This document shows positions 937-22,743 of a DNA stretch of 64,000 nucleotides, one piece after another. The translations under genes and the position numbers were made by a program. The notes under the pieces were generated by a model. The model was not told the DNA's origin and made no database searches. It saw only the letters and a list, made by a program, of their open reading frames with translations. Source of the stretch: Candidatus Bathyarchaeota archaeon. Lineage in GTDB: Archaea > Thermoproteota > Bathyarchaeia > Bathyarchaeales > Bathycorpusculaceae. How positions within the stretch are numbered: position 1 is the first letter of the stretch; each line of letters opens with the position of its first letter. The stretch lies in assembly GCA_963833575.1 (NCBI GenBank), contig CAWHXY010000006.1, positions 128,001 to 192,000 on the forward strand, written 5' to 3'.

Positions 937-1643
937 TTAAGAGTTTACATCCTGTGGAACAAACCGCCGCAGATTCTTAAGCGACTGCAGTTTCTCTTTC
1001 TCGCCGATTTTTGCTTCCTGCACTGACTGTTTTAGGATTTGAATAGATTCATCCATTGCTTTGCGGTCAACAGGATAAGGAACACCATCTTTGCCTCCAT
1101 ATGCAAAACTAAATTTTACAGGGTCCTCCCAACTTGGCTTTTCGCCGTAAACTAACTCGGCGACAAGAGCTAAACCCCTAACTGTCGCGGGTCCAACACC
1201 TTTGATACTCAAAAGCTCCTCGTAATTGTTTGGTTGGAACTCGTAAACTCGGCTTAGCGTATCCCAATTAATGTTACGCGGCATGTTTAGCGTGTTTAAG
1301 GTTTGTTGCCATGGGTCATCGGTCTTGGGTAGCCAATTTTGAAGTGAATATTGGTTTAGCGGTTTTGTGGTTGATTGGATCAGGTTCATGAGTTTGCGTG
1401 TGGGTTCCTTTGCCAAGTCTACGCTGGCTTTTCTGGCAGCTTCGCTATCTTTTGCTACCATGTTCAGGGCTGTTTCCCGTTTTACGTTTCCAACTATTGC
1501 ATTGTGTGGTTCAACAGCAAAGTCCGCTACATTATCCGACAGCCAATGATACCGTCTTGCCGAACGGTCATTTTCACTCATACCCTGCTGAATCACAGCC
1601 CACTGCTCATCCCTAGTTACTAAGAAAGCGTGGTGATAAAGCT
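937..1643 (-). pseudogene. C-terminal fragment of a DUF763 family gene interrupted by element E1
   Basis: LYHHAF...WAVIQQGM...ARRYHW...GVGPATVRGLALVAELVYG...FSFAYGGKDGVPYPVD are DUF763 motifs. The first 29 aa of track ORF 937..1728 come from E1 sequence. Confidence 0.88.
1638..1643 (+). repeat. E1 attL core (AAAGCT)
   Basis: Identical to 5956-5961 and lies exactly at the DUF763 breakpoint. Confidence 0.85.
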
Positions 1644-1882
1644 CAAAGCATGTCAGTAGTGATATCTCCCGCAATATTTCCCCTTTTTTTGATAAGCACG
1701 AGGCAAATAGGAAACTCCGTTTTGCCATAGCATCTCTCCAGGGAAAGGTAGAGAGCTCGATCTGGAAAAGACGCCTTCAAACGGCTCTAATTATCAGGGA
1801 TGAGCTCCTGGAGCATGGTTACAAGTGGCAAGCCGATAGGATCGATAACTGGATCCATAGGCTCCAGGAAAAGGAGGTTTGA
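1640..1882 (+). CDS. E1 ORF1, 3' part (start codon supplied by the other end of the element after circularisation)
   Basis: Open frame ...DKHEANRKLRFAIASLQGKVESSIWKRRLQTALIIRDELLEHGYKWQADRIDNWIHRLQEKEV*, homologous to E2 ORF 18004..18282. It has no start codon and is bounded by a TAA at 1637-1639 in the integrated state. Confidence 0.8.
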   Translation, partial: SSKHVSSDISRNISPFFDKHEANRKLRFAIASLQGKVESSIWKRRLQTALIIRDELLEHGYKWQADRIDNWIHRLQEKEV

Positions 1883-1885
1883 GCT

Positions 1886-2215
1886 CTGGAGCATAGAATT
1901 AGAGTTTTTTGCCCTGCCTGTATCGATTTGATACCCGATTTTTGGCATGGATCTAGTCAGGATTGGTATAAAGCTCTCGAGGCCGTACATGGCCTTCCTT
2001 TCCCTCAGTGGTTACTTACTGCTTTGGAGCACGAATTTGAGCATGGTTACGACAGATCACACCTGACACAGATCAGCGATTCAGTCAAACACAAACGATA
2101 TCCAGCTAAGTTTCCATGGAGGCTTAAGCTGAAGGATCCAGGGGTTCCCGGGCCTGGAAAAGTCTTGCAGGCCGAAGGCCTGACCTCTGAGAGAAGAGAG
2201 GAGGGCTCTTTCTAG
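1886..2215 (+). CDS. E1 ORF2, hypothetical (track start 1928; possible CTG start at 1886 adds a CPAC motif)
   Basis: AGGAGG at 1872-1877 precedes an in-frame CTG. The C-terminus LQAEGLTSERREEGSF is shared with E2 ORF 18282..18473. Confidence 0.5.
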   Translation: MEHRIRVFCPACIDLIPDFWHGSSQDWYKALEAVHGLPFPQWLLTALEHEFEHGYDRSHLTQISDSVKHKRYPAKFPWRLKLKDPGVPGPGKVLQAEGLTSERREEGSF

Positions 2216-3190
2216 TTGGCAGCCAAATACATGCTGGAGCAAGAAGGCAGCTTCACTTTCATGAGGCCTGACTCGATCGAGTGCAGGATCGTAACCTGCA
2301 AACATTATGATGCCTGCAAAAGCGTTGGCGAAAAGTCGGGTATCCTGCCTAAAGCGAAGTCGATTTTAGAGGTTTTGGGCCTCGATTGGCAACTGCCAGG
2401 TCATGGCAAGGCCTATGATGATTGTGGATCCTGGAGGTACAGGGGTTGCTTAGACGTCTATTCTCACGTGCAGAATGAGCTGGATCAGAGCATCAAGGAA
2501 AAGATCTATGTTGAGTGGTATCATCGCAGCTGTGTGAGGGCCGAGTGTCCGATCTGCTATGAGAAGTGGGCTGGGAAGGAGGCTGCTAAGATCGAGCATC
2601 GTCTAAAGTACTTCTGGAAATATGGCAAGGTTATCCATGTGACCGTTTCACCGTCAGAAAAAGACGCTGTTAACATGCCTTTTGAGAAATTGATCGCAAA
2701 AATGTATCGGATAGCTAAACAGAGAGGTTTGAAAGGTGGTTCTTGTATTTGGCATCCCTGGAGAGAGCACGATAATGGATCATGGTATTTCTCGCCCCAT
2801 TTCCACGTTCTAGGCTTTGGATGGGTGCGAAACACTAAAGAGGGCTTTGAAAAGGATGGTTGGTTAGTGAAAAATATCCAGGATGGCAAGAAGGAAAGAT
2901 CAGTTTTCCGCACGGCCATGTATCAACTAAGCCATTGTGGGATCAGCAAAAATCATAGGCCAGTTACCTGGTTTGGAGTTTGCAGTCCAGCTGCTAAGGA
3001 AAAAGTCAACGTGCCTCCAATGGAGAAAGAGAAACACTTGTGTCCAGCTTGCGGAGCTGAGCTAGTACAACTTAGGTATTTTGGCTTGGAGGATCAGCTG
3101 CCAGATCGAGAGGAGAACGCATGTGCCTGGCTAGATCCTGGAGAGAACTGGGCAGAGTTCCAGCCCTCCAGGTATGGAGATGAAGGGTAA
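2216..3190 (+). CDS. rep: Rolling-circle replication initiator (HUH endonuclease Rep) with Zn-binding motifs
   Basis: Motif I-like VIHVTVSP, HUH motif PHFHVLG, motif III-like YQLSH tyrosine, and Cys motifs CVRAECPIC and CPACG. Confidence 0.82.
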   Translation: MAAKYMLEQEGSFTFMRPDSIECRIVTCKHYDACKSVGEKSGILPKAKSILEVLGLDWQLPGHGKAYDDCGSWRYRGCLDVYSHVQNELDQSIKEKIYVEWYHRSCVRAECPICYEKWAGKEAAKIEHRLKYFWKYGKVIHVTVSPSEKDAVNMPFEKLIAKMYRIAKQRGLKGGSCIWHPWREHDNGSWYFSPHFHVLGFGWVRNTKEGFEKDGWLVKNIQDGKKERSVFRTAMYQLSHCGISKNHRPVTWFGVCSPAAKEKVNVPPMEKEKHLCPACGAELVQLRYFGLEDQLPDREENACAWLDPGENWAEFQPSRYGDEG

Positions 3191-3351
3191 TGTTCAGAGT
3201 TCAGATTCGCCGAGGTAGTGGATCCAGGGCCAGGATCCAGATTAAGATCTGTGGTGATTGTGGTTTTTGGGTTGGCCGTTGCCTTTTAGGTGAGGGAAAC
3301 CGTTTTGCTGGATCTGAGTCATGTGGTAGATCTAAACCTAGGGAGCTGTGA
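3190..3351 (+). CDS. Small Cys-rich protein (53 aa, not in ORF track)
   Basis: ATG overlaps the Rep stop (TAATG). MFRVQIRRGSGSRARIQIKICGDCGFWVGRCLLGEGNRFAGSESCGRSKPREL. Conserved in E2 at 19646..19804. Confidence 0.75.
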   Translation: MFRVQIRRGSGSRARIQIKICGDCGFWVGRCLLGEGNRFAGSESCGRSKPREL

Positions 3352-3355
3352 GATA

Positions 3356-3652
3356 GTGGCCAGGGCACATGATTGTATCTTAACAGTTACTATTAGAAAG
3401 AGGCTGTTGAAAGAGATCAGAGATAAGCGGTTGTTGTCGTTGAATTTTCTTGAGAGATTGAGAACTCAGGAAGCGGATCCTGTGGATCTCAGCTGCTTTA
3501 AGTGTAGCCGAAAGGTTAGAGGTGGCTCATGGATCCATGTGATCAGAAGCTCCTATAGAGTGCGAATCTATCATCTCAAGTGTTTTGAGGGATCCTTTGT
3601 TGATGCTCACAGAAGTAACTGTGATCAAGCTTCTGGGAGGGTTGAAAACTAA
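3356..3652 (+). CDS. Zn-finger protein (CxxC...HxxC)
   Basis: GTG start at 3356 matches E2 MARATDCILT. Contains CFKC and YHLKC. Confidence 0.75.
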   Translation: MARAHDCILTVTIRKRLLKEIRDKRLLSLNFLERLRTQEADPVDLSCFKCSRKVRGGSWIHVIRSSYRVRIYHLKCFEGSFVDAHRSNCDQASGRVEN

Positions 3653-3653
3653 A

Positions 3654-3866
3654 ATGCCAAAAGGTGAAGGTACTGCTGGAGGCATCATGGAGATAATTAA
3701 GACTCCGTTGGGCATCATCATTTTGTTTATCATTATGTTGGTGCTAGCTGGCTTGAGTATTGCCTCAGCTATCTCAGGAGCCTTAACCGCTGCAGCTGTT
3801 AGCTCAGCTGGGTTGTTGGTTGTAGTTGTGCTCCTGGTAGTTGTCAAAGTATTAGGGAAATCTTAA
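3654..3866 (+). CDS. 70-aa hydrophobic helical-hairpin protein, candidate major capsid or pilin-like protein
   Basis: MPKGEGTAGGIMEIIKTPLGIIILFIIMLVLAGLSIASAISGALTAAAVSSAGLLVVVVLLVVVKVLGKS. Two hydrophobic segments and a basic C-terminus. Identical protein in E2 despite 10 synonymous substitutions. The capsid role is an inference. Confidence 0.65.
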   Translation: MPKGEGTAGGIMEIIKTPLGIIILFIIMLVLAGLSIASAISGALTAAAVSSAGLLVVVVLLVVVKVLGKS

Positions 3867-3870
3867 GCAG

Positions 3871-3891
3871 AAAGGCTCAGAATTGAGCTTT
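3871..3891 (+). terminator. Hairpin after the candidate capsid gene
   Basis: AAAGGCTCA-GAA-TTGAGCTTT imperfect inverted repeat followed by a pyrimidine-rich tract. Same sequence at 20316-20336. Confidence 0.45.
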
Positions 3892-4154
3892 ATTTCCTCA
3901 TTCTCCCTCATTTTTCCGTTAATTAACATCTTTTAGGCTCCAGGAGAGGGGTTTTTGACTCTCTTAGGGTAGTCAGTTTTGATCAGAAATTGGCCAAGTT
4001 TCTTCAATCTTTTGCGTACGTGAGAAATTTGGGCCCCTTTATTATTATATTATGTATATTAGGTAATCACAAAAAAAATAAATATTAAAAAATGCTTAGT
4101 AGAATTCAATTTGGGGTTGAATGTTGAAATGGAGCTCAGTTTGGTGGTATCTAA

Positions 4155-4436
4155 GTGAGAGAGTACAGTAATGGCTTCTCTGTTAAGCTAACAGATGAGG
4201 AGCAAGCAAGCTATGAGAGAGTTCTCAGTTATTATAAGGCCGTTGATCCTTCTCGATCAAAAGCTTTCAGGTTGTTGCTGAGGGCGCTGGAGTTGGAGAT
4301 CTCCAGGCAATCTCAGAAGGCCTATTGGAGTAACACCGAGTTTGATCCTCCCAGGGCTGAACCAAGCCATGACGTAACAATCAGTTCTGAGGAGGAGTTC
4401 CTGGAGAGAGAAGCAAAGGACACCTGGACTGAGTAG
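4155..4436 (+). CDS. Ribbon-helix-helix-like DNA-binding regulator
   Basis: N-terminal FSVKLTDEEQ strand-helix followed by SRSKAFRLLL, with an acidic tail. Identical protein in E2. Confidence 0.55.
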   Translation: MREYSNGFSVKLTDEEQASYERVLSYYKAVDPSRSKAFRLLLRALELEISRQSQKAYWSNTEFDPPRAEPSHDVTISSEEEFLEREAKDTWTE

Positions 4437-4439
4437 GGC

Positions 4440-4686
4440 AAAAGTAATATCCATAAAGGCGTTATTATTGATCAAGCAGCTGAGGCCAGCTGCATGGCTC
4501 CAGGAGGATTTAAGATCTTGAAACCGTCTTTTTCTTCCTTTTGGAGCCATCCAATTTTAACTATTTTTGTCAATTGTGAAATAGGTCTAAAATCGGACAT
4601 AGTGGGTAAAAAGTAATATCCGTTTGATGGGCTTTTGTGTCCATTTTGTTTATAAGTAAAAAGTAATATCCGTTTCATGGACTTTT
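4440..4686 (+). promoter_or_regulatory. Direct repeats upstream of the integrase (operator or iteron-like) around a TATA-like box
   Basis: AAAAGTAATATCC at 4440-4452. The longer GTAAAAAGTAATATCCGTTT(G/C)ATGG(G/A)CTTTT occurs at 4606 and 4656 (50-bp period) with TTTATAA between them. Confidence 0.6.
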
Positions 4687-4749
4687 CTAAAAACTGTAGA
4701 TGTTAAAAGCCTTGACTTTGAATAGTCCATCAAGGCTTCAAGATCTAAA

Positions 4750-5925
4750 ATGAGTGCTGATTTAGCTCAAATTTCAAGTTCAAGTAACAAAACCAGCTCA
4801 GCTCCTCAGTGTCCTAAGTGTGGTTTTCGTGTAGTTCTTGATGGCCATCGTTACTCCTGGGGCCAGGATATCCAGCTTTTCAAGTGCAAAAATAAGTCTT
4901 GTCGTTATAGGTTCTCAAACGGACATAGTAGTTCAAAAACTAATCCAAAGATAGTTAGATCTAACCAATTAGGCGTCAGATTAGAGGCGAAAAAATTGGT
5001 TTCTGCAACAGAAATAAAGACTGTTGTGGGAGATAAAAATGACAATCTGATCACGTACGCATGGCATGAGAAGAAACGTGGAATAGCTGATACAACCATC
5101 ACACATAGAGTTTTCCGTTTGACTGTTCTTATGAACAGAGGTGCTAACTTAGATGATCCAGAGAGCTTTCTATCGGTTTTGATGACTGAAAATTTTTCAG
5201 AGTCCTCAAAATTCCAGTATTTGCAAGCTTACCTGAGCTACGCCAAAGCGTTCAAAATTCCTTTTGAGAAGCCAAAAATCCACTATGAACCGAAAGTCCA
5301 GTACACGCCAAAGCCCTATGAGGTAGCAATCTTAATTCAAAATCTTGGTAAACAACAGAGAGCTTTAGTTCAAACGATGGCGACTACAGGTGCGAGAATT
5401 GGAGAAATGGCCAGGTTAGAATGGAGTGAAATAGATTCAGTAGGACAGATAGTGTATATCAACCATCCAGAGAAGGGCAGCAGAGCTAGAAAAATCCATG
5501 TGCCTGAGCAAACCATCAAATTCCTAGAAGGATTGCCAAAAACCTATGATCCTTACGTTTTCAACCCAAATAAGCGAACCTTACAAGCTACCTATGCCAG
5601 ATCCAGAGACTCTATCGCTAAAAGGCTTGATATGCCGATCCTCAAAAAAATCCATCATCACTCTTTCCGTCGATATTTTGCAGATCAGACCTACAAAAAA
5701 ACCCAATTTAACATCCGAAAAACACAGCTGCGAATGGGCCATAAACGATTGAGCTCTACAGAGAAATACTTTGACGATTTTGACGATGAAAACGTCACTT
5801 TTGAAACAGCTAGAGCTTACACAGTAGAGGACGCAGAGGAGCTGAGGCAACTGGGCTATGAGCTATATGATACTGGAATAGACGAGAACGGCAAAGCTGT
5901 GAAGTTGTACAGTAGGATGGCTTAG
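4750..5925 (+). CDS. int: Tyrosine integrase with N-terminal Zn ribbon (E1)
   Basis: CPKC..C..C N-terminus. Catalytic TGARIGE (R), KGS (K), HSFRR (HxxR), MGHK (H), EKYF (Y). Confidence 0.93.
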   Translation: MSADLAQISSSSNKTSSAPQCPKCGFRVVLDGHRYSWGQDIQLFKCKNKSCRYRFSNGHSSSKTNPKIVRSNQLGVRLEAKKLVSATEIKTVVGDKNDNLITYAWHEKKRGIADTTITHRVFRLTVLMNRGANLDDPESFLSVLMTENFSESSKFQYLQAYLSYAKAFKIPFEKPKIHYEPKVQYTPKPYEVAILIQNLGKQQRALVQTMATTGARIGEMARLEWSEIDSVGQIVYINHPEKGSRARKIHVPEQTIKFLEGLPKTYDPYVFNPNKRTLQATYARSRDSIAKRLDMPILKKIHHHSFRRYFADQTYKKTQFNIRKTQLRMGHKRLSSTEKYFDDFDDENVTFETARAYTVEDAEELRQLGYELYDTGIDENGKAVKLYSRMA

Positions 5926-5953
5926 ACATGGTAATAGCGAAAAAAACGTACAT

Positions 5954-6388
5954 TCAAAGCTGGTACCCCGCTTGAATAGCGGCGTTATCAACTTTTGCAG
6001 CCATTTTACTATTGTAAGTTAATTCGTTGATCTTTTCTTCAGAAAAACCGAATTTTGTGCCAGCCACTGCTAAGTCGTTTGGCGTTTTCTTTGAGGTTTT
6101 TCCTTTTCCGCCGCAGACCGCTATGCCGTGCTCTTTTGGTGATAGAGCGCTTTTGAGGATGCCTGTGACGACTGTTGTTACTCCTGAGCTGTGCCAATCG
6201 TAAGCTAAAACGCAGCCGAATGCTTGAAACCAATACGGGTCCGATAAACGTTGCATGAATTTGGATGTGCCCTGCTCTTCAATCATGATGTTTGCTATTT
6301 CTTTGGCTAATTTGCGCATTCGCACAGTTAGCCATGAAGGAGCTTTTCCGCCATGAAGAGGCAGGTTTGCAACGCCCGTTCTATACAT
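5954..6388 (-). pseudogene. N-terminal fragment of the DUF763 family gene interrupted by E1
   Basis: MYRTGVANLPLHGGKAPSWL...LSDPYWFQAFGCVLAYDWHSSGVTT...AKVDNAAIQAGYQL, then a TGA formed at the E1 junction. Confidence 0.9.
5956..5961 (+). repeat. E1 attR core (AAAGCT)
   Basis: Identical to 1638-1643 and lies at the end of the DUF763 N-terminal fragment. Confidence 0.85.
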
Positions 6389-6689
6389 TACTTTCACTAT
6401 CAGTATTCGCTCAAAGAATAATGAGGCATCCTGTTTTGAATGTTATTGAAACATTTACGGCAGTTTTCAACTATACAGAATGGAAAATGCAGGCTCACAG
6501 ATTTGAATAATTATCTGTAGGACGTAGATACGACTGCTTTAGCATCTAATTGTTAAATTCCACAGTTCTCTTGTTTGTACAATGCCTCATTTGTTTAAAC
6601 CCAATTGGTTATGTGTACAACTGTAGTTTCAGGTATCATTTAGAAAGGTTATGTCGATGTTTTGCCTATTAGTGTTTGAGCGATGAATA

Positions 6690-6872
6690 TTGACAGTTAA
6701 TATGTACCATAGCAAGGTATTGTGCGGCCATGAAGCGGTCGACGCATTAGACAAATATATCCGAAAACTTGAAAAACGCAAAGTTAAAGGTTTAACCGAA
6801 AAACAAGCTTATGCCCTAATCAAAACAGCAAAAGTACTGCGAACTGAAATTATCCGATCCAAAGACAACTAA
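6690..6872 (+). CDS. Small basic hypothetical protein
   Basis: ORF track only; plausible composition. Confidence 0.4.
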   Translation: MTVNMYHSKVLCGHEAVDALDKYIRKLEKRKVKGLTEKQAYALIKTAKVLRTEIIRSKDN

Positions 6873-7075
6873 AAAACAAGAAACTCAACCTACAACTACT
6901 GGAATACATCTCTTGGCTAATCCTGTTTCGAATTCTATTCAACATAGACTTCTGCGTCCATAAACACTTACGTTTAGAAATTGACTCGGTTAGGATAACT
7001 TCAGTTCTCACAATTCGAAATTTTGTTACCCACATATACAGAAAAACAACTTTGAAGGTCTTGCAACGTATTCGG

Positions 7076-7513
7076 CTATTTATCGATTAGAGGATCTTGG
7101 AATGTTAAGCTCGTGTTTTTCCAAGTTATTTTTTGCAGTTTTAATAGTTCTTTGTCATGAGTATAAATAATCGGTGTTTGGTTTGCTAAAAAAGTTGCAA
7201 CTATTAAGGAATCTCTTCCACCAAGCTTGTGCTGCACACATAAAGTGAGGGCTATGGTGCTTGTTTTTCTCGTCTGATTAAAGAATTCTATGTACGGATG
7301 TTTAAGAAGCATTTTCAATTCTTTAGCGGCTTCTTCTGGAACCCATTTCTGGCTAAAAACCAATACGTGATATGTTTCGTGAAGCGTGGTCGGATTTAAA
7401 GCAACCTTATTTTCAGGAGATAGACTGAGGAACAAATCCCCGAGTTTTTCGTTTTCAGGGTACTCTTCATCCAGAGCGTAACATATAATGTTAGCGTCTA
7501 AACCCACAATCAT
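7076..7513 (-). CDS. vapC: PIN-domain toxin (VapC-like)
   Basis: GLDANII, E residue, RDSLIVA and THDKEL acidic PIN motifs. Overlaps the antitoxin gene by 4 nt. Confidence 0.85.
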   Translation of the reverse strand: MIVGLDANIICYALDEEYPENEKLGDLFLSLSPENKVALNPTTLHETYHVLVFSQKWVPEEAAKELKMLLKHPYIEFFNQTRKTSTIALTLCVQHKLGGRDSLIVATFLANQTPIIYTHDKELLKLQKITWKNTSLTFQDPLIDK

Positions 7514-7910: not shown

Positions 7911-8885
7911 TTAATGAAGTTCTATGATTCCGGCAACTCGGAGCTTTGCACCCTCAAGATACATGAGCACTGCTGTATCATTTGGACGGTAAACTAGTGG
8001 CTTTTCAAAACTTAAAGTTAAAGCTGGCTTTTTCGGATCGCCACCTTCAACAATGGCTTCGATTTTAACAGTTATGAATTGCGTCCAATGGCCAACATGC
8101 ATGACCATACCCGGTTTTATCGGCATCTGCCAATACTTAACTATAGAAGCATGCGTTTCCATTTTGGAAGCAGTCTTGATTGAAGAATCGTTTGTTAAAA
8201 CGGTGCCGCGGTCCAAATCTTCTACATCAACGTTTTTAAGCGCAAGTCCAACTCGATCACCTTCACCTGCAACGTCAAATTCGTCGTCATGCTTTTGGAT
8301 AGACCGAACTTGAGCCGCTTTTCCTCCTGGAAAAACATTCAGTGAAGCATGTTTCTGGATTAACCCATTTGTAACTACGCCCAAGACAACTACCCCAACA
8401 CCTTTAACATTGAAGGCGTGGTCGACTGGAACCGTTCCAAACGCTGCGACCGCTCCCACAGGTATTTCGGCTGGTTTCTGATTTGCGGCTTCTGTCAACA
8501 GTCTTTCTCTCAAAACCGTTGGGTCATCTGACAGGAATTCGTATTTTTCTAGGTTTGTTCCTTTTATGAGAGGTCCAATTTTTTCTTTGGGAATATAATT
8601 TCGCAAAATAAAGTAGCCTTTCTGAATGTTTGCGGATTGAAGCATTACTAAGCATTCACCAAAAGTGGCATCGATTTGGTCCACGACAACCACGGCTTCT
8701 TTCGATAGGGAGACTGTGTAAAAGAGAGGAGCTAACCTTTCAGGGTAGCGTTCGGGTTCAATCAAAGTGACTGTGTCTTCGCCTTTCTTGATATTGTAAA
8801 ATGTGATGTCGGTGGATGTACCTTTCTTGCCAAGACCTGCGCTATACCCTAATACGCCGATTACGGCGACTGTAATATTCCCCAT
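7911..8885 (-). CDS. Archaeal SelB-like / EF-Tu domain II protein
   Basis: LGKKGTSTDIT, VDHAFNVKGVGVVVLG, VRSIQKHD, GDRVGLALK, DLDRG. Confidence 0.8.
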   Translation of the reverse strand: MGNITVAVIGVLGYSAGLGKKGTSTDITFYNIKKGEDTVTLIEPERYPERLAPLFYTVSLSKEAVVVVDQIDATFGECLVMLQSANIQKGYFILRNYIPKEKIGPLIKGTNLEKYEFLSDDPTVLRERLLTEAANQKPAEIPVGAVAAFGTVPVDHAFNVKGVGVVVLGVVTNGLIQKHASLNVFPGGKAAQVRSIQKHDDEFDVAGEGDRVGLALKNVDVEDLDRGTVLTNDSSIKTASKMETHASIVKYWQMPIKPGMVMHVGHWTQFITVKIEAIVEGGDPKKPALTLSFEKPLVYRPNDTAVLMYLEGAKLRVAGIIELH

Positions 8886-12261: not shown

Positions 12262-12996
12262 TTAGAATATGGTTTCTGTCATTATCCTCTTTAGTATTGT
12301 GGCACCGTCTTTCATTTTGAGTTTTTTTTCACCGAGTCTCTCTCTATACTGGATCGGCACCTCAACTGTTTTGAAGCCTTTCTTTTGTATCAAGCTGTTT
12401 AGTTCCACTTCGATGTCGAAGCCTTCAGACTTTATTGTATAGTTCCTGAGAATTTCTGCTCGGATAACTCTCAAACCTGTAAGAGGGTCAACTAGTGTTA
12501 TCCCGTTAAGAACATTATGGGCAAAAGCTAGAACTTTGTTTCCCAAGTAGAAACGGCTACGCAATGCTTTGTTGTCTAGCTGATCGTTGAATCGGTTTCC
12601 ACAAACCATTCCTACGTCTGGATTCTGATCAAGAATTTTTATCATTTCGGGCACATGTCGAGCTGGATAAGTGAAGTCCGCATCGGTGATTACAACATAG
12701 TCAATATCGCTGTCTGTTAGATTTAGCCCCTTCGCAATAGCATCCCCTTTGCCTACACCATCTTGAAAAGTAATATCCACTCCATAATTCTTTGCTACTT
12801 CCACAGTTCTATCGCTGCTGTGACCGTCTACAACCAGAATATGAGGCGAATCAAGATTATCCTTAAGCTCCTCTAATGTAAGTCCAATGCCTTGCTCCTC
12901 GTTTAAAGCTGCGACAATCACTTGAGTAGAACAAGCGCGGGCAAGAGGTGTTTCATAAATATTTTTCATAATCTGCAAAGTGTAAGTCCCTTTCAT
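12262..12996 (-). CDS. GT2 glycosyltransferase (DPM-synthase-like)
   Basis: VVDGHSSDRT, GKGDA, DADFTYP, FDIEVE, RLGEKKL. Confidence 0.9.
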   Translation of the reverse strand: MKGTYTLQIMKNIYETPLARACSTQVIVAALNEEQGIGLTLEELKDNLDSPHILVVDGHSSDRTVEVAKNYGVDITFQDGVGKGDAIAKGLNLTDSDIDYVVITDADFTYPARHVPEMIKILDQNPDVGMVCGNRFNDQLDNKALRSRFYLGNKVLAFAHNVLNGITLVDPLTGLRVIRAEILRNYTIKSEGFDIEVELNSLIQKKGFKTVEVPIQYRERLGEKKLKMKDGATILKRIMTETIF

Positions 12997-13505: not shown

Positions 13506-13757
13506 GTGAGCGAAGCGATTGACAGAAAAGGGTGGCGTGAGAGCGCTAAATCTTGGATATTACGTTTCATAAAATTCAACGTAATTGGCACCGTTGTTTT
13601 CTTGGTGGCAACAGTAATTTACATGGCTGCTTTTCCAGCAATTGGTGCCTGGACATGGCTGTTAGCTAATGCTGCTGGGGGCTTACTGCAGTTTACGTTG
13701 ATTACTTATTTCAACAAGAAGAAAAAAGGCGTGATTTTCCAGCAATGCAAGCAATAG
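13506..13757 (+). CDS. GtrA-like small membrane protein
   Basis: RFIKFNVIG motif and two TM helices. Confidence 0.6.
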   Translation: MSEAIDRKGWRESAKSWILRFIKFNVIGTVVFLVATVIYMAAFPAIGAWTWLLANAAGGLLQFTLITYFNKKKKGVIFQQCKQ

Positions 13758-17891: not shown

Positions 17892-17907
17892 TAAGAAACG
17901 CTTATTA
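17892..17907 (+). repeat. E2 attL (TAAGAAACGCTTATTA)
   Basis: Identical to 22466-22481, with an internal dyad TAAG-aaacg-CTTA. Confidence 0.9.
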
Positions 17908-18003
17908 TCCAAATTTGGGTGACATCTCCCGCGCCAAACCCTCCCTTTCTTTTTCATTAATGTTCTGCTGTAGTCTTTTTGCTTACCTAAATTTTTCGGA
18001 GGT

Positions 18004-18282
18004 TTGTCCTTGAGCGGTAGCTGTGAACCTCTTTTTTCTGATTTTTACAACAAGGATTGGGCCAATCGAAAACTCCGTTTTGCGATCGCAACTCTTCAGG
18101 GAAAAATTGAGATCTCTATCTGGAAAAGACGCCTTCAAACGGCTCTAATTGCCAAGGATGAGCTCCTGGATCATGGTTACAAGTGGCAAGCCCAGAGGAT
18201 CGATAACTGGATCCATAGGCTCCAGGGCCAGGAAATTGCTAAGGATGAGGCCAGGATTCAGGGCCAGGAGGCCAGGAAATAA
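18004..18282 (+). CDS. E2 ORF1, hypothetical
   Basis: Homologous to the E1 frame at 1640-1882 (ANRKLRFAIA.LQGK...WIHRLQ). Confidence 0.75.
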   Translation: MSLSGSCEPLFSDFYNKDWANRKLRFAIATLQGKIEISIWKRRLQTALIAKDELLDHGYKWQAQRIDNWIHRLQGQEIAKDEARIQGQEARK

Positions 18283-18473
18283 TGAAGGATCCAATCTTTG
18301 GATCTGGCCAGTTAGATATCTGGCCCTGCAGGAGAGGATCTTGGCACCAGGAAAACAATTATTGGTTGATTGAGGCCTGGCCAGCAGCTGCTCAGGATCC
18401 AATAGTTTCCAGGCCCGGGAATTTACAGGCCGAAGGCCTGACCTCTGAGAGAAGAGAGGAGGGCTCTTTCTAA
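18282..18473 (+). CDS. E2 ORF2, hypothetical
   Basis: TAATG coupling to ORF1. Ends in the same LQAEGLTSERREEGSF as E1 ORF2. Confidence 0.55.
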   Translation: MKDPIFGSGQLDIWPCRRGSWHQENNYWLIEAWPAAAQDPIVSRPGNLQAEGLTSERREEGSF

Positions 18474-19424
18474 TTGGCAGCAAAATTTAGGCTGGAGCAA
18501 GAAGGCAGCTTCACTTTCATGAGGCCTGACTCGATCGAGTGTAGGATCGTTACCTGCAAGCATTATGAGGCCTGTAAAAGCGTTGGCGAAAAGTCGGGTA
18601 TCCTGCCTAAAGCGAAGTACGGTTTTGAGGAAATTGATTGGCAGTTACCAGGCCACGGCGAGAAGTATGATGATTGTGGGGATTGGCGGTATCGTGGCTG
18701 TCTTAACGTAGAAGCTCACGGCCAGAATGAGCTCGGTCAGGATGTTGAGGGAAAGATCTGGGTTGAGTGGTATCATCGGAATTGTGGCCGTGCAGAATGT
18801 CCTACTGATTATGAAAGATGGGCTGGGCTTGAAGCATCAAAAATCACGCATCGGTTGAAGTATTTTTGGAAGAGGGGAAAGGTGCTTCATATAACCATTT
18901 CTCCGAGTGAAAAGGACGCTTTAACATTGAGCTTTACCAAATTGAAGGCTAAAATGTACCGTGTTGCAAGGCTGAGGGGGATCAAGGGAGGCTGTGTAAT
19001 TTGGCATCCCTTCAGGGAAAATGATGATGGAACCTGGAGAGTATCTGGCCACTTCCATATCTTAGGGTTTGGGTGGGTTCGAAATGTCAGCCAGGGGTAC
19101 AAAAGTGATGGTTGGTTAGTGAAAAACATCCAGGACGGTCAGAAGGAAAGATCTGTTTTCAGGACGGCCATGTATCAGCTTAGCCACTGTGGTATAAGTA
19201 AAGGAACTCGTCCTGTGGCTTGGTTTGGAGTTTGCAGCTCAAAAATCAAAGTTCCAGAGATTGAGGAAGTTAAGCATCTATGTCCATGTTGCGGAGCTGA
19301 GCTAGTACAGCTTCGTTATTATGGAGATCCTGACGGTCTCCCAGATAAGACTGAAGAGAACGGTTCCTGGTTGGATTCTGGAGATTGGATCGAGAAAGAA
19401 ACAGTGAAATGGAGGAGAGATTAG
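18474..19424 (+). CDS. rep: Rolling-circle replication initiator (HUH endonuclease Rep)
   Basis: VLHITISP, GHFHILG (HUH), YQLSH, CGRAECP, CPCCG. Homolog of 2216..3190. Confidence 0.82.
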   Translation: MAAKFRLEQEGSFTFMRPDSIECRIVTCKHYEACKSVGEKSGILPKAKYGFEEIDWQLPGHGEKYDDCGDWRYRGCLNVEAHGQNELGQDVEGKIWVEWYHRNCGRAECPTDYERWAGLEASKITHRLKYFWKRGKVLHITISPSEKDALTLSFTKLKAKMYRVARLRGIKGGCVIWHPFRENDDGTWRVSGHFHILGFGWVRNVSQGYKSDGWLVKNIQDGQKERSVFRTAMYQLSHCGISKGTRPVAWFGVCSSKIKVPEIEEVKHLCPCCGAELVQLRYYGDPDGLPDKTEENGSWLDSGDWIEKETVKWRRD

Positions 19425-19425
19425 G

Positions 19426-19638
19426 ATGTCTAAACTAGGGAGAAAGATTTGTTGCATCTATAGAAAGGATGCTCGCTGTGTTAGACCATTCCAGGATTTT
19501 CAACGGTGTTTCTTCATTGGAAATCATGTTAGAGCTGGAGAACAATGTGATTTTGACGTTGGAGTATGTTTGTTGGTACCTGAAGCAATTAAAGCTCAAT
19601 ATCTCGCTATTTTAGAAAAAAATGGTTTTCATAGGTGA
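19426..19638 (+). CDS. E2-specific Cys-rich small protein
   Basis: Packed 1 nt after Rep, six Cys residues, absent from E1. Confidence 0.55.
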   Translation: MSKLGRKICCIYRKDARCVRPFQDFQRCFFIGNHVRAGEQCDFDVGVCLLVPEAIKAQYLAILEKNGFHR

Positions 19639-19645
19639 TGATTAG

Positions 19646-19804
19646 ATGTTCGTTAGCATTGAGATTTTAGAGAGTTTCAGGGCCAGGATCCAGGTTAAGA
19701 TCTGTGGTGAATGTCGGTTCTGGGTTGGCCGTTGCCTTTTAGGTGAGGGGAACCGTTTTGCCGGATCTGAGGCTTGTAATAGATCTAGGAGTCGAGATGT
19801 GTAA
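19646..19804 (+). CDS. Small Cys-rich protein (52 aa, not in ORF track)
   Basis: MFVSIEILESFRARIQVKICGECRFWVGRCLLGEGNRFAGSEACNRSRSRDV. Homolog of 3190..3351. Its stop overlaps the next ATG. Confidence 0.75.
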   Translation: MFVSIEILESFRARIQVKICGECRFWVGRCLLGEGNRFAGSEACNRSRSRDV

Positions 19805-20097
19805 TGGCTAGGGCTACAGATTGTATCTTAACAGGTACTAATCAAAAGAGGCTGTTGCGAGAGATTAGACAAAAGCGGTTGCTACCTCTGAATTTTGTTG
19901 AGAGGGTCAGGGATAAGGTTGTGGATCTAGATATCAGCTGTGAGATGTGTGGCCGAAGGATTAGAAAGGGCTCCAGGATCCATGTGATAAGGAGCTCAAT
20001 TAAAGTCAGGATTTATCATCTGTGTTGTTTTGAGGGCTCTTTTATTCATGCTCACAGAAGTAACTGTGATCAAGCTTCTGGGAGGGTTGAAAACTAA
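19804..20097 (+). CDS. Zn-finger protein (CxxC...HxxC)
   Basis: CEMC and YHLCC. Homolog of 3356..3652. Confidence 0.75.
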   Translation: MARATDCILTGTNQKRLLREIRQKRLLPLNFVERVRDKVVDLDISCEMCGRRIRKGSRIHVIRSSIKVRIYHLCCFEGSFIHAHRSNCDQASGRVEN

Positions 20098-20098
20098 A

Positions 20099-20311
20099 AT
20101 GCCAAAAGGTGAAGGTACTGCTGGAGGCATCATGGAGATAATTAAGACTCCGCTGGGCATCATCATTTTGTTTATCATTATGTTGGTGCTAGCTGGACTC
20201 TCGATTGCCTCAGCTATCTCAGGAGCCTTAACCGCTGCAGCTGTCAGTTCAGCTGGGCTGTTGGTTGTAGTTGTGCTCCTGGTAGTTGTCAAAGTATTAG
20301 GGAAATCTTAA
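20099..20311 (+). CDS. 70-aa hydrophobic helical-hairpin protein, candidate major capsid or pilin-like protein
   Basis: Protein identical to 3654..3866. Confidence 0.65.
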   Translation: MPKGEGTAGGIMEIIKTPLGIIILFIIMLVLAGLSIASAISGALTAAAVSSAGLLVVVVLLVVVKVLGKS

Positions 20312-20599
20312 GCAGAAAGGCTCAGAATTGAGCTTTATTTCCTCATTCTCCCTCATTTTTCCGTTAATTAACATCTTTTGAGCTCCAGGAGAGGGGTTTT
20401 TGACTCTCTTAGGGTGGTCAGTTTTGATCGGAAAATGGCCAAGTTTCTTCAATCTTTTGCGTACGTGAGAAATTTGGGCCCCTTTATTATTATATTATGT
20501 ATATTAGGTAATCACAAAAAAAATAAATATTAAAAAATGCTTAGTAGAATTCAATTTGGGGTTGAATGTTGAAATGGAGCTCAGTTTGGTGGTATCTAA

Positions 20600-20881
20600 G
20601 TGAGAGAGTACAGTAATGGCTTCTCTGTTAAGCTAACAGATGAGGAGCAAGCAAGCTATGAGAGAGTTCTCAGTTATTATAAGGCCGTTGATCCTTCTCG
20701 ATCAAAAGCTTTCAGGTTGTTGCTGAGGGCGCTGGAGTTGGAGATCTCCAGGCAATCTCAGAAGGCCTATTGGAGTAACACCGAGTTTGATCCTCCCAGG
20801 GCTGAACCAAGCCATGACGTAACAATCAGTTCTGAGGAGGAGTTCCTGGAGAGAGAAGCAAAGGACACCTGGACTGAGTAG
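20600..20881 (+). CDS. Ribbon-helix-helix-like regulator
   Basis: Protein identical to 4155..4436. Confidence 0.55.
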   Translation: MREYSNGFSVKLTDEEQASYERVLSYYKAVDPSRSKAFRLLLRALELEISRQSQKAYWSNTEFDPPRAEPSHDVTISSEEEFLEREAKDTWTE

Positions 20882-20884
20882 GGC

Positions 20885-21131
20885 AAAAGTAATATCCATA
20901 AAGGCGTTATTATTGATCAAGCAGCTGAGGCTAGCTGCATGGCTCCAGGAGGATTTAAGATCTTGAAACCGTCTTTTTCTTCCTTTTGGAGCCATCCAAT
21001 TTTAACTATTTTTGTCAATTGTGAAATAGGTCTAAAATCGGACATAGTGGGTAAAAAGTAATATCCGTTTGATGGGCTTTTGTGTCCATTTTGTTTATAA
21101 GTAAAAAGTAATATCCGTTTCATGGACTTTT
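20885..21131 (+). promoter_or_regulatory. AAAAGTAATATCC direct repeats upstream of the integrase
   Basis: Same three repeats as 4440-4686. Confidence 0.6.
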
Positions 21132-21195
21132 CTAAAAACTGTAGATGTTAAGAGCCTTGACGTTGAATAAGTCCTTCAAGGTTTCAAGATTTAAA

Positions 21196-22482
21196 ATGAG
21201 TGCTGATTTAGCTCAAATTTCAAGTTCAAGTAACAAAACCAGCTCAGCTCCTCAGTGTCCTGAGTGTAGTTCTCATGAAGTAGTTCTTGATGGCCATCGT
21301 TACTCCTGGGGCCAGGATATTCAGCTTTTCAGATGTAAATCATGTAAGCATAGGTTCTCAAACGGACATAACAGTTCAAAAACTAATCAAAATACTATTA
21401 GATCTAACCAATTAGGCGCTAAATTAGAGGCGAAAAAATTGGTCGTGCTGCCACATAGAAAACATGTCGGCACGGGAGAAGTCACTGCAGAACATGAAGC
21501 ATTGCTTAGAGTTTTTGAAGGTTGGCTACGGAAAGAAGGCTACAACAAAAACTGTTATCCAAACAACGTAAAGACATTGCTATACCTTGGGGCCAATCTT
21601 TTAGATCCAGAGGATGTCAAAGCAAAAATCGCTGATCACAACGTCAAAAACGGAATGAAAATGCAACTTTGCTACAGTTATGAAGCGTTTCTACGGATGA
21701 ACAAAATGACTTGGACGCGACCAAAAAATGGAAAAGGCTACAAACAAGACGAGATTGATCCGTGGATTCCACTTGAGGTAGAGCTGGATCAACTGATTGC
21801 AGCTGCACATAGCAAGCGGATGGCAGTTTTTCTACGGACTCTTAAGGAAACTTTCACTGATCCAAGTGAGGCACTACAGATTGAGAGCCATGACATTGCA
21901 GACAATTCAGTAACGATCAGACATCCTGTTAAGAAACATCGTCCACGAACGCTAGAAGTTTCACCTCAGCTGATTGCAGATCTAAATAGCCTCTCACATG
22001 ATTCAGATCGGATTTTTGATTGCAGATACAGCACTATGATCAGCGGTTTTATTGCGTTGCGTAGGCGTGTCGCTCAAAGAACCCAAAACGACAGAATAAA
22101 CTACATCGAGTTACGGAGCTACAGACATTGGGCTGGAACAATGATTGCAGAAATGTCAAACGGTAATCCAATGTCAGTAATGAAGCTGCTAGGCTTAAGA
22201 CGCATTGAAAATGCTATGAAATACGTTAACATCTGGAAATTGAGCTTCAAAACTGAGACTGAATGGCAATACATGGAAGTTACAACACCTGAAGAACTAA
22301 AGATTGCCTTGCTTGGCGGCTACCAACATGTCATCGACAAGTTTGGAGCTTCATGGTTTAGAAGACCTAAAAGAATTGCCATTGCTATTACACCGATTAG
22401 CCAGCGACCAGATGAACCACAATGTCCCCAGATAGAAACCCCGATTAATAAACGCGAACCTGCATTAAGAAACGCTTATTAA
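21196..22482 (+). CDS. int: Tyrosine-recombinase-family integrase (E2) with non-canonical catalytic residues
   Basis: Shares the MSADLAQ...LEAKKLV N-terminus with the E1 integrase. Core reads KETFTDPSEAL, LRSYRHW, LLGLRRIENAMKY. Its 3' end overlaps attR. Confidence 0.82.
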   Translation: MSADLAQISSSSNKTSSAPQCPECSSHEVVLDGHRYSWGQDIQLFRCKSCKHRFSNGHNSSKTNQNTIRSNQLGAKLEAKKLVVLPHRKHVGTGEVTAEHEALLRVFEGWLRKEGYNKNCYPNNVKTLLYLGANLLDPEDVKAKIADHNVKNGMKMQLCYSYEAFLRMNKMTWTRPKNGKGYKQDEIDPWIPLEVELDQLIAAAHSKRMAVFLRTLKETFTDPSEALQIESHDIADNSVTIRHPVKKHRPRTLEVSPQLIADLNSLSHDSDRIFDCRYSTMISGFIALRRRVAQRTQNDRINYIELRSYRHWAGTMIAEMSNGNPMSVMKLLGLRRIENAMKYVNIWKLSFKTETEWQYMEVTTPEELKIALLGGYQHVIDKFGASWFRRPKRIAIAITPISQRPDEPQCPQIETPINKREPALRNAY

Positions 22483-22743
22483 ATGACGCGGATTAAACCT
22501 TAGAAGCCAGAGGTTTTGGGCGAGTAGATCAGTCTGGCATGATCGCCACGTTGGCATCGTGGAGGTCCCGGGTTCAAATCCCGGCTCGTCCACCAAACAA
22601 TTATTCGTGTTTACGCCTCGAAGGCGACTTATTGCCAATTTAAGGGCATTTTCACAGATTTTTGGCGCATTTAACCCAATTTCATAAGCTAAATTCGCTA
22701 ATTCTGGATTTAATTCAATCGTTGCACTGACTTGTGTTGTCAT
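22465..22743 (-). CDS. CcdA-like/RHH antitoxin-type ORF whose C-terminus runs antisense into the tRNA
   Basis: ATIELNPELANLAYEIGLNAPKICENALKLAISRL resembles CcdA-family proteins. The tail LVDEPGFEPG is the tRNA read antisense. Confidence 0.5.
   Translation of the reverse strand: MTTQVSATIELNPELANLAYEIGLNAPKICENALKLAISRLRGVNTNNCLVDEPGFEPGTSTMPTWRSCQTDLLAQNLWLLRFNPRHLISVS
22466..22483 (+). promoter_or_regulatory. E2 attR coinciding with the probable BRE/TATA promoter of tRNA-Ala
   Basis: Purine-rich AAGAAACG followed by CTTATTAAA, about 35 bp upstream of the mature tRNA start at 22518. Confidence 0.7.
22518..22595 (+). tRNA. tRNA-Ala(GGC), CCA encoded
   Basis: Acceptor stem GGGCGAG/CTCGTCC with G3:U70, anticodon arm CCACG-TTGGCAT-CGTGG, T loop GGTTCAAATCC, 3' ACCA. 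Confidence 0.96.

Follow-up and report, generated by a model that had tools for sequence, protein, structure and literature searches.

Two small integrated elements, 16 kb apart and in direct orientation, lie on one Bathyarchaeia chromosome within a 64,000-nucleotide (nt) stretch of contig CAWHXY010000006.1 of Candidatus Bathyarchaeota archaeon (assembly GCA_963833575.1), hereafter called the window. The genome measures 2.75 Mb in 8 contigs, and the window is part of a 353-kb contig. Element A (4.3 kb) and element B (4.6 kb) are sister copies of a small integrative element, and each carries an integrase gene, intA and intB respectively, of which the first part is shared between the two and the second part is not. 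These genes, and the modules that we distinguish within them, are as follows:

1638-5961, + strand: element A, flanked by the 6-bp attachment (att) core AAAGCT at 1638-1643 and 5956-5961
4750-5925, + strand: intA, 391 amino acids (aa)
4750-5001, + strand: N-module of intA, zinc (Zn) ribbon and linker ending in LEAKKLV
4981-5010, + strand: proposed recombination junction, where the conserved AK[NK]L motif is encoded
5002-5925, + strand: C-module of intA, core-binding, catalytic and C-terminal beta domains, with canonical R..HxxR..H..Y (from PF00589, model and alignment)
17892-22481, + strand: element B, flanked by the perfect 16-bp direct repeat TAAGAAACGCTTATTA at 17892-17907 and 22466-22481
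21196-21444, + strand: N-module of intB, MSADL...LEAKKLV, in a frame open from an ATG at 21145
21445-22482, + strand: C-module of intB, tyrosine recombinase fold (from model and alignment)

Computations on intB began at 21193, one codon before the MSADL start at 21196. When the window is compared with itself by BLAST, a single large repeat stands out (3225-5010 against 19678-21455, 91.9% identity), with weaker matches to its left (2133-3084 at 74%, 1702-1868 at 89%) and no match to the right of 5010/21455; no third copy was found elsewhere in the genome at the nucleotide level. A preliminary description of this DNA, made from its letters, had stated that the two int genes align from MSADLAQ to LEAKKLV, and this is indeed what we find: there are exactly two copies of the 20-mer TTAGAGGCGAAAAAATTGGT, one ending at 5000 and the other at 21443, and the self-BLAST match stops at 5010 and 21455. 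The loss of nucleotide similarity that had been noted past this point is equally clear in a global alignment, in which the identity per 100 nt, 78-100% up to position 5010, is at a noise level of about 39% beyond it. Elsewhere the two backbones are homologous, with nucleotide identities of 62-100%, and past the att core homology restarts after 11-16 nt. The segment that A and B do not share in nucleotides thus runs from the end of the linker after the Zn ribbon, through the core-binding, catalytic and beta domains, to the att core.

At the protein level, IntA and IntB share 83% of 82 aligned residues in the N-terminal part and 23% of 298 in the C-terminal part. Breakpoint analysis by maximum chi-square points to IntA residue 84, the V of LEAKKLV, with a value that none of 2000 shuffles reached. 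By the method of Nei and Gojobori, int codons 1-22 are identical between A and B, codons 23-84 have diverged at synonymous sites by 0.34 (dS) and at nonsynonymous sites by 0.15 (dN), and after residue 84 the proportion of synonymous differences (pS) is 0.78, which is saturated, with a dN of 1.10. Divergence along the gene is therefore step-like and not gradual, saturation setting in only after residue 84. Similarity ahead of the break is itself uneven, as one stretch of it is nearly identical:

3991-4815, + strand: near-identical tract of A and B, 6 mismatches in 825 nt, ending at int codon 22

On the sequences, we read this tract as a recent gene conversion between A and B that is younger than the break in the linker. 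The C-terminal parts on either side of the comparison are nevertheless homologous (BLASTP E = 5e-11), and profiles of the two types, which we call clade A and clade B, match each other at E = 5e-45 over 356 columns. As far as sequence comparison goes, the C-modules are two deep clades of one family and not unrelated domains, so that the ‘different catalytic domains’ of the preliminary description are better described as divergent members of one family, with the same architecture in their structural models.

The two elements occupy different kinds of target. Element A interrupts a host gene of the DUF763 family:

937-1641, - strand: C-terminal piece of the split DUF763 gene (positions 134-319 of the Pfam PF05559 profile)
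5954-6397, - strand: N-terminal piece of the split DUF763 gene (positions 1-139 of the Pfam PF05559 profile)

The DUF763 reading frame runs on from the N-terminal part across the core, and the junction sequence shows that the stop codon of this part comes from element A. Most of the same-genus genomes that were searched have an uninterrupted DUF763 gene, and reading the junction in eight of these genes gives a 6-bp crossover core, AAAGCT (AGCTTT in the orientation of DUF763), with the crossover inside the codons for YQL|YHH. This core lies 30 nt past the intA stop. The empty sites place the junction where the 6-bp core and the protein-gene target had first been assigned.

Element B lies just upstream of a tRNA gene:

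22518-22595, + strand: tRNA-Ala(GGC), with the att core of B in conserved sequence directly upstream

The right-hand 16-bp repeat ends 36 nt upstream of the tRNA gene and encloses the last five codons of intB, the core being duplicated. An empty B site was found in a same-genus genome (L109), in which both flanks known from the window are joined by one core. The tRNA-Ala region is present in 39 of 41 same-genus genomes, and in most of them similarity to the window begins exactly at the repeat; all 11 loci read agree in the core and in the few bases that follow it, and their sequence farther upstream is unrelated. Such conservation would fit a promoter element, and the perfect repeat together with the empty site agrees with the earlier reading of a 16-bp core in a tRNA promoter. 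In the window (22482-22518) and at eight other loci (L009, L025, L026, L027, L031, L035, L067 and L120) the int stop is followed on the same strand, after 23-89 nt, by the start of a tRNA gene, which means that the elements insert ahead of the tRNA, into its promoter region, and not at its 3’ end. At four more loci (L003, L012, L020 and L022) the downstream tRNA is on the opposite strand. At one further tRNA-Ala locus (L121; G236:C8, ~8040-8076), a stretch of about 20 nt upstream of the core looks like the 3’ end of intB; tblastn found no integrase at this locus, and the stretch may be the scar of a lost element, or chance.

Relatives in other genomes indicate which part of the integrase goes with the target. 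Four clade-A loci were found, at 61-69% identity, and at three of these (L038, L039 and L040) the int stop and an N-terminal fragment of DUF763 on the other strand are about 40 nt apart, with the same junction; L039 has the C-terminal fragment in addition. For element B, the integrase of genome G209 is 70% identical to IntB in its C part and 40% in its N part, and it sits at the same tRNA-Ala site. Its protein ends in ALRNAY like IntB, a nucleotide similarity of 73% begins at B position 21430, and tblastn with the backbone proteins of A and B gave no match there, this being a different backbone. As judged from these loci, target choice tracks the C-module segment, and not the N-terminus, among close C-modules.

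A query with the N-terminal part matches 77 of the 201 genomes of the host’s family, mostly in open frames of 380-500 aa. Besides IntA and IntB themselves, no close copy of IntA residues 1-90 appeared in a search with this region only against 5.8 billion proteins. Scans of genome contigs with single C-module proteins gave nothing and the loci were found with alignment queries; viral contigs scanned with the clade A alignment returned distant integrases only, at 23-27% identity. In these integrases it is usually the C part that changes more slowly than the N part. In a set of 61 full-length database proteins, N identity averages 54% when C identity is 80-90%, and for the 708 pairs with 20-30% C identity the N mean is 38%, with a maximum of 62% that belongs to IntA/IntB. 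This pair is also the maximum (77%, against a mean of 41%) among 186 pairs of an independent set of 47 genes from genome loci. Each C-module has closer relatives elsewhere: those of the IntA C-module at 70-76% C identity reach only 24-58% in the N part, and P0029, the best relative of the IntB C-module, shares 88% in C and 51-58% in N.

Trees of the two parts tell the same story. The C-part tree, made with a quick method that leaves 12 forks open, places IntA in a 16-row clade (Shimodaira-Hasegawa-like approximate likelihood ratio test, SH-aLRT, 99) and, at the other end of the tree, IntB beside P0029 as its sister (99), whereas in the N-part tree IntA and IntB are sisters (100/100). In approximately unbiased (AU) tests, the N alignment rejects the 16-row C clade (p-AU 3.8e-6) as well as the whole C topology (log-likelihood difference 401, p-AU 4e-45), and it still rejects the latter when IntA and IntB are left out (319, p 2.7e-7). 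Other N-sisters with different C partners and starred support are P0031+P0045, P0042+P0055 and P0053+P0054. The N-terminal and catalytic phylogenies, compared separately, thus conflict across the family and are not congruent.

The pattern recurs in a second pair, L017/L021, from two genomes of another genus of the same host family. Among 1076 gene pairs from genome loci, this pair has 89% N identity (73 aa) with 36% C identity. The two sequences are 87% identical in nucleotides over a stretch that begins about 130 nt before the gene and ends with the VAGEKE codons, after which there is only noise; counted from the start of the EAKNL codons, the break comes 57 nt later. L017, a DPGE variant, and six relatives (82-92% C identity) share their downstream flank, with an rpS6e gene about 40 nt away, and L021, which has the canonical R, lies upstream of a TBP gene. 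A motif [ED][AST]K[NK]L ends the N-module in 47 of 48 aligned genes, the exception being L048_+4336, which was left out of later counts, and it is often followed by xxATE[IT]KTVAGE. Here a 12-codon window, LGVRLEAKKLVS, is the gene’s most conserved in nucleotides, at 66% identity against a typical 40-50% over 683 distant pairs (under 40% C identity, the two swap pairs left out), and this figure exceeds the aa identity of the same 12 codons (50%). In such a conserved patch at a flexible domain boundary, crossovers could start and yield working hybrids. The suggestion that the exchange happens at a ‘fixed point’ within the gene does need revision, since the two mapped breaks are 57 nt apart in one conserved linker patch, and the younger conversion ends at codon 22; as placed by the alignments, the breaks cluster in one roughly 20-codon linker.

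So what does the break separate? AlphaFold models of IntA and IntB, built on 18 and 27 sequences respectively and with a mean predicted local distance difference test score (pLDDT) of 76 and 73, both predict a Zn ribbon, a low-confidence linker (IntA residues 59-96; IntB residues 75-105 in its 445-aa frame), a helical core-binding domain, a catalytic domain and a small C-terminal beta domain. According to these models the break would sit, in both enzymes, in a disordered linker between the Zn ribbon and the core-binding domain. The ribbon of the N-module is a four-Cys Zn ribbon, with weak Pfam hints to those of InsA, TRASH and YjdM. The catalytic domain of IntA matches PF00589 (E = 9.5e-17, residues 199-344), and its ARIGE, HSFRR and GHK, together with the Tyr in EKY, align with the family, and by these marks IntA belongs to the superfamily of tyrosine recombinases; catalytic roles are assigned to these residues after the known pentad. 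For IntB no match to PF00589 was found at 0.01. Its canonical Arg I, His II and His III are replaced by D (in TxxDPxE), R (in RSYR, thus RxxR for HxxR) and L, and TxxDPxE is invariant in 27 clade-B sequences, so the active-site make-up differs clade-wide between the A and B types. The IntB model matches XerA, lambda Int, Cre and Tn1549 Int with probability 1.00 (Foldseek), and the column of the nucleophilic Tyr is invariant, clade B included, so that by predicted fold and Tyr IntB is assigned to the same superfamily. The perfect repeats around B and its empty site suggest that clade-B enzymes integrate precisely without Arg I; clade B apparently consists of active integrases that lack the first catalytic Arg. 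For the IntCTnDOT subgroup, an excerpt of PMC8138268 reports an Arg that sits at an alternative position; in IntB, the Arg at the His II position might act as a substitute.

On the other side of the att core, A and B share a short motif:

1659-1690, + strand: conserved block GTGATATCTCCCGC-N7-CCCC-T7, 16 nt inside attL of A
17919-17955, + strand: conserved block GTGACATCTCCCGC-N6-CCCTCCCTTTCTTTTT, 11 nt inside attL of B

The block, which can be written [AT]TCTCCCGC-N4-7-CCC..T6-8, sits on the far side of the core as seen from int, at a distance of 11-21 nt. As ATCTCCCGC-N4-7-CCC..T6-8 it is present in five integrated elements with known attL (A, B, L039, L056 and L058), which differ in their C-modules and cores. 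Among 28 related ints that were inspected for flanking direct repeats, a convincing pair was found only in L056, and a second, in L058, by eye. At L028 the block lies about 60 nt past the int stop, and this locus looks like an unintegrated attP that carries the 5’ part of a tRNA. The block may serve the shared N-module as an arm-type site, act as a terminator, or do both, and it would supply homology for a second crossover.

The reverse complement of ATCTCCCGC also occurs inside int itself, in the linker (AGD codons) about 240 nt into the gene; exact copies are found at L054, L055, L056, L062, L063, L066, L068, L071, L074 and L076, and the one in IntB (21472-21485) has 2 mismatches. We considered an inverted repeat bracketing the cassette and set it aside, as the 11 exact internal copies come from one related group of N-modules and the remaining matches in 145 loci are close to the chance estimate (roughly 8). 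The internal copies may reflect coding constraint. A further peculiarity of B, worked out by eye (22466-22482 with 17908-18018), is that the last base of the intB stop comes from the host flank and would be lost in the excised circle, where intB would read on for about 37 codons across attP and through the ATCTCCCGC block. With the stop lost in this way, the integrated and free forms of B would encode integrases with different C-terminal tails.

Taken together, these observations favor, with a probability of roughly 0.8, that the integrase has been retargeted by swapping its C-module and attP core at the inter-domain linker between sister elements. The N-module, with its Zn ribbon and linker, would travel with the element backbone, and the C-module (core-binding, catalytic and C-terminal beta domains), directly followed by the attP core, would set the chromosomal target. 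In one lineage, homologous recombination would have replaced the resident C-module and attP core by their equivalents from a distantly related integrase, with the first crossover in the nucleotide patch that codes for AK[NK]L, the best conserved between otherwise diverged int genes, and the second in or near the conserved block just beyond the att core. As the junction would lie in a flexible inter-domain linker, hybrids could survive, and the outcome would be one backbone with two targets, the DUF763 gene and the tRNA-Ala promoter. That the catalytic domain and attP form an exchangeable cassette, as was first proposed, is upheld by a target that follows the segment, by conflicting trees and by an independent second swap. 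The proposal that this lets siblings ‘retarget and co-reside’ holds for retargeting, which goes with the C-module; co-residence is seen once, the second pair being spread over two genomes, and any benefit from it is something that we infer.

Several points weigh against this interpretation. One of the four clade-A loci, L041, has no DUF763 fragment downstream, and the clade-B relatives L045-L050 (53-61% identity) have no tRNA beside int, which confines the link between C-module and target to close C-modules. The tree evidence is limited by an N alignment of only 72 columns, which does not reject a grouping of IntB with P0029 (AU p = 0.0997), and AU tests of whole topologies can over-reject when the forks of the rival tree are poorly supported or open; the contrast at synonymous sites and the foreign relatives of each C-module are independent of these tests. 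Just two breakpoints are mapped at the nucleotide level, at different bases, and since the younger conversion ends at codon 22, A and B have also recombined outside the linker. Either lineage could have been the recipient, so the direction of exchange would be a matter of inference, and both the activity of IntA and IntB and the mobility of the elements are predictions from sequence.

Could the same arrangement have arisen in another way? A and B might be anciently diverged elements of which the left part, backbone and int N-terminus, was homogenised by conversion, with no cassette imported. Gene conversion between them does occur (3991-4815, 6 mismatches in 825 nt), the copies are close together and in direct orientation, and the exchange could have gone in either direction. 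However, the whole backbone is homologous at several depths (62-100%) and not in one tract, and codons 23-84 are about as diverged as the Rep-like gene of the backbone described below, which points to an old backbone and not to a fresh conversion. We therefore regard homogenisation as unlikely, although it would have the same formal outcome, a hybrid gene joined at the linker, and is more a viewpoint than a true rival.

Far less probable is a history without recombination, in which the C part diverged quickly towards a new target after duplication while the N-terminus remained constrained. Retargeting by mutation is known for lambdoid integrases (an excerpt of PMC8371274), but fast divergence fits poorly with synonymous saturation that starts only after residue 84, with C-module relatives at 70-88% identity that have the same targets in other genomes, with active sites that differ as whole clades, and with an N part that normally evolves faster than the C part. 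Hardly any weight goes, likewise, to a contig misjoined across the A/B repeat. The roughly 0.8 kb of nearly identical sequence in both copies could have misled an assembler, yet the break at 5001-5010 lies about 190 nt outside that tract, in sequence that differs at about 20% of its bases; both elements have matching attL and attR cores, the assembly has only 8 contigs of which this one measures 353 kb, and the same architecture and targets are seen in other genomes.

Retargeting by exchange of the C-module and attP core may also be a wider habit. Tentatively, and with less than even confidence, the Bathyarchaeia Zn-ribbon integrases could be plug-and-play enzymes, in which an N-module that binds ATCTCCCGC is repeatedly re-assorted at an AK[NK]L...VAGE hotspot kept by its nucleotide sequence, across canonical and Arg-I-less active sites, redirecting elements among tRNA, ribosomal-protein and TBP promoters. 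The genome holds further members, observed in passing: an integrase at the start of contig 1 (G000:C1:227-1309; L003/L006), at 30-33% identity and with a tRNA-Cys downstream on the opposite strand, a 378-aa frame on contig 4 (G000:C4:1049716), and a broken fragment (G000:C4:978370-978702).

Integrases whose N and C parts have separate histories are already known. Hybrid Int(N)/Int(C) genes have been described for the suicidal SSV-type integrases, in the IntpT26-2 family of the Thermococcales, and have been explained by homologous recombination between related co-integrated elements (excerpts of PMC7253208; PMC8371274). They are the closest precedent, being archaeal tyrosine integrases with N and C parts of different ancestry, for which a route to new target specificity has likewise been proposed. 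In SSV-type enzymes, however, int contains attP, the gene is split on integration, and hybrids are joined at the att site itself, whereas the frames of IntA and IntB are intact when integrated, with the A core 30 nt beyond the int stop and the B core covering only the last five codons of intB. Moreover, the A/B junction is in an inter-domain linker about 1 kb from att, and an N-terminal Zn ribbon is present. The A/B case differs in the whole gene, the junction in the linker and the Zn-ribbon family. An ancestral SSV-type att at the junction was considered and set aside, as the genome has no other copy of the sequence and ARAGORN finds no tRNA there.

Heterobivalent integrases such as lambda Int and Tn916 Int (excerpt of PMC8138268) similarly combine an extra N-terminal domain, DNA-binding-like in our case, with a flexible linker and core-reading domains, and the block next to the core of A and B is a candidate for a comparable arm site. 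Their N-terminal domain has a three-stranded arm-binding fold, though, in place of the four-Cys Zn ribbon found here, and the arm-binding domains are described as one clan of common origin in the same excerpt. Exchange of int-attP modules among phages, integrative and conjugative elements and plasmids is a classic theme (excerpts of PMC8371274 and PMC8138268), in which integration function and attachment site also move together and change the insertion site; there the whole gene is exchanged, whereas the A/B boundary is intragenic, so that the enzyme itself is chimeric. The best solved match to both C-modules is archaeal XerA (PDB 5hxy, 4a8e), at E = 2.3e-10 against the clade A profile and E = 4.5e-9 against the IntB model (Foldseek), with 13-16% identity. 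XerA, unlike IntA and IntB, is a chromosome-dimer resolvase without a Zn ribbon. Neither this Zn-ribbon integrase family nor its module exchange is described in the literature searched, which left most subscription journals outside its coverage.

The break makes the natural cut-and-rejoin point of a tyrosine integrase visible in sequence, with precise-site integration kept. Target choice lies wholly downstream of this cut, which gives a concrete design rule for chimeric recombinases. It also extends the idea of Int(N)/Int(C) hybrids from self-splitting SSV-type enzymes to a family with intact genes, in an archaeal class that is uncultured and of whose mobile elements little has been described, and with a habit of insertion into the promoters of tRNA and housekeeping genes, instead of tRNA 3’ ends.

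The backbone that A and B have in common includes the following features:

2216-3190, + strand: backbone gene of A, 324 aa, with an SPHFHVLG motif
18474-19424, + strand: Rep-like backbone gene of B, 316 aa
4440, 4609 and 4659 (4440-4671), + strand: three copies of the 13-nt AAAAGTAATATCC upstream of int, with three more at matching places in B

The Rep-like proteins of A and B are 71% identical, and SPHFH[VIF] is invariant in three Rep-like sequences. No match was found in Pfam or PHROGs for this protein, nor in PHROGs for nine backbone open reading frames (ORFs), and its Atlas feature neighbours include Rep_1 clusters at 0.95-0.96. From its motif and neighbours the 324-aa protein is probably a rolling-circle Rep, and the element of which A and B are copies probably a rolling-circle replicon that acquired an integration region. 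Viral contigs scanned with the Rep alignment gave no matches, and a metagenome scan with the same alignment returned 19 short contigs (1-2.8 kb, L127-L145), none of which reaches an int gene. Those of 1.7-2.8 kb, especially L133, L135, L136, L138, L141 and L144, contain only the Rep-like gene (53-73% aa identity) and a 92-aa gene, and several have the C-terminal end of Rep at one end and the N-terminal end at the other, reading as circular permutations and as expected of small circles or tandem copies, which suggests that free replicons of about 2 kb without an integrase exist.

AAAAGTAATATCC has 8 matches in the window against 0.22 expected. Two of its copies, one exact and one with a single mismatch, lie in host DNA between A and B (12766-12778, + strand; 13555-13567, - strand), inside or close to a glycosyltransferase gene and ahead of the gene for an RNA methyltransferase. 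To the right of tRNA-Ala lies a gene for a 645-aa AAA_23 ATPase with coiled-coil-like sequence (22940-24877), and to the right of element A a PIN-domain gene (7076-7513, - strand) with a small upstream ORF (together 6690-7513), an arrangement that is toxin-antitoxin-like.

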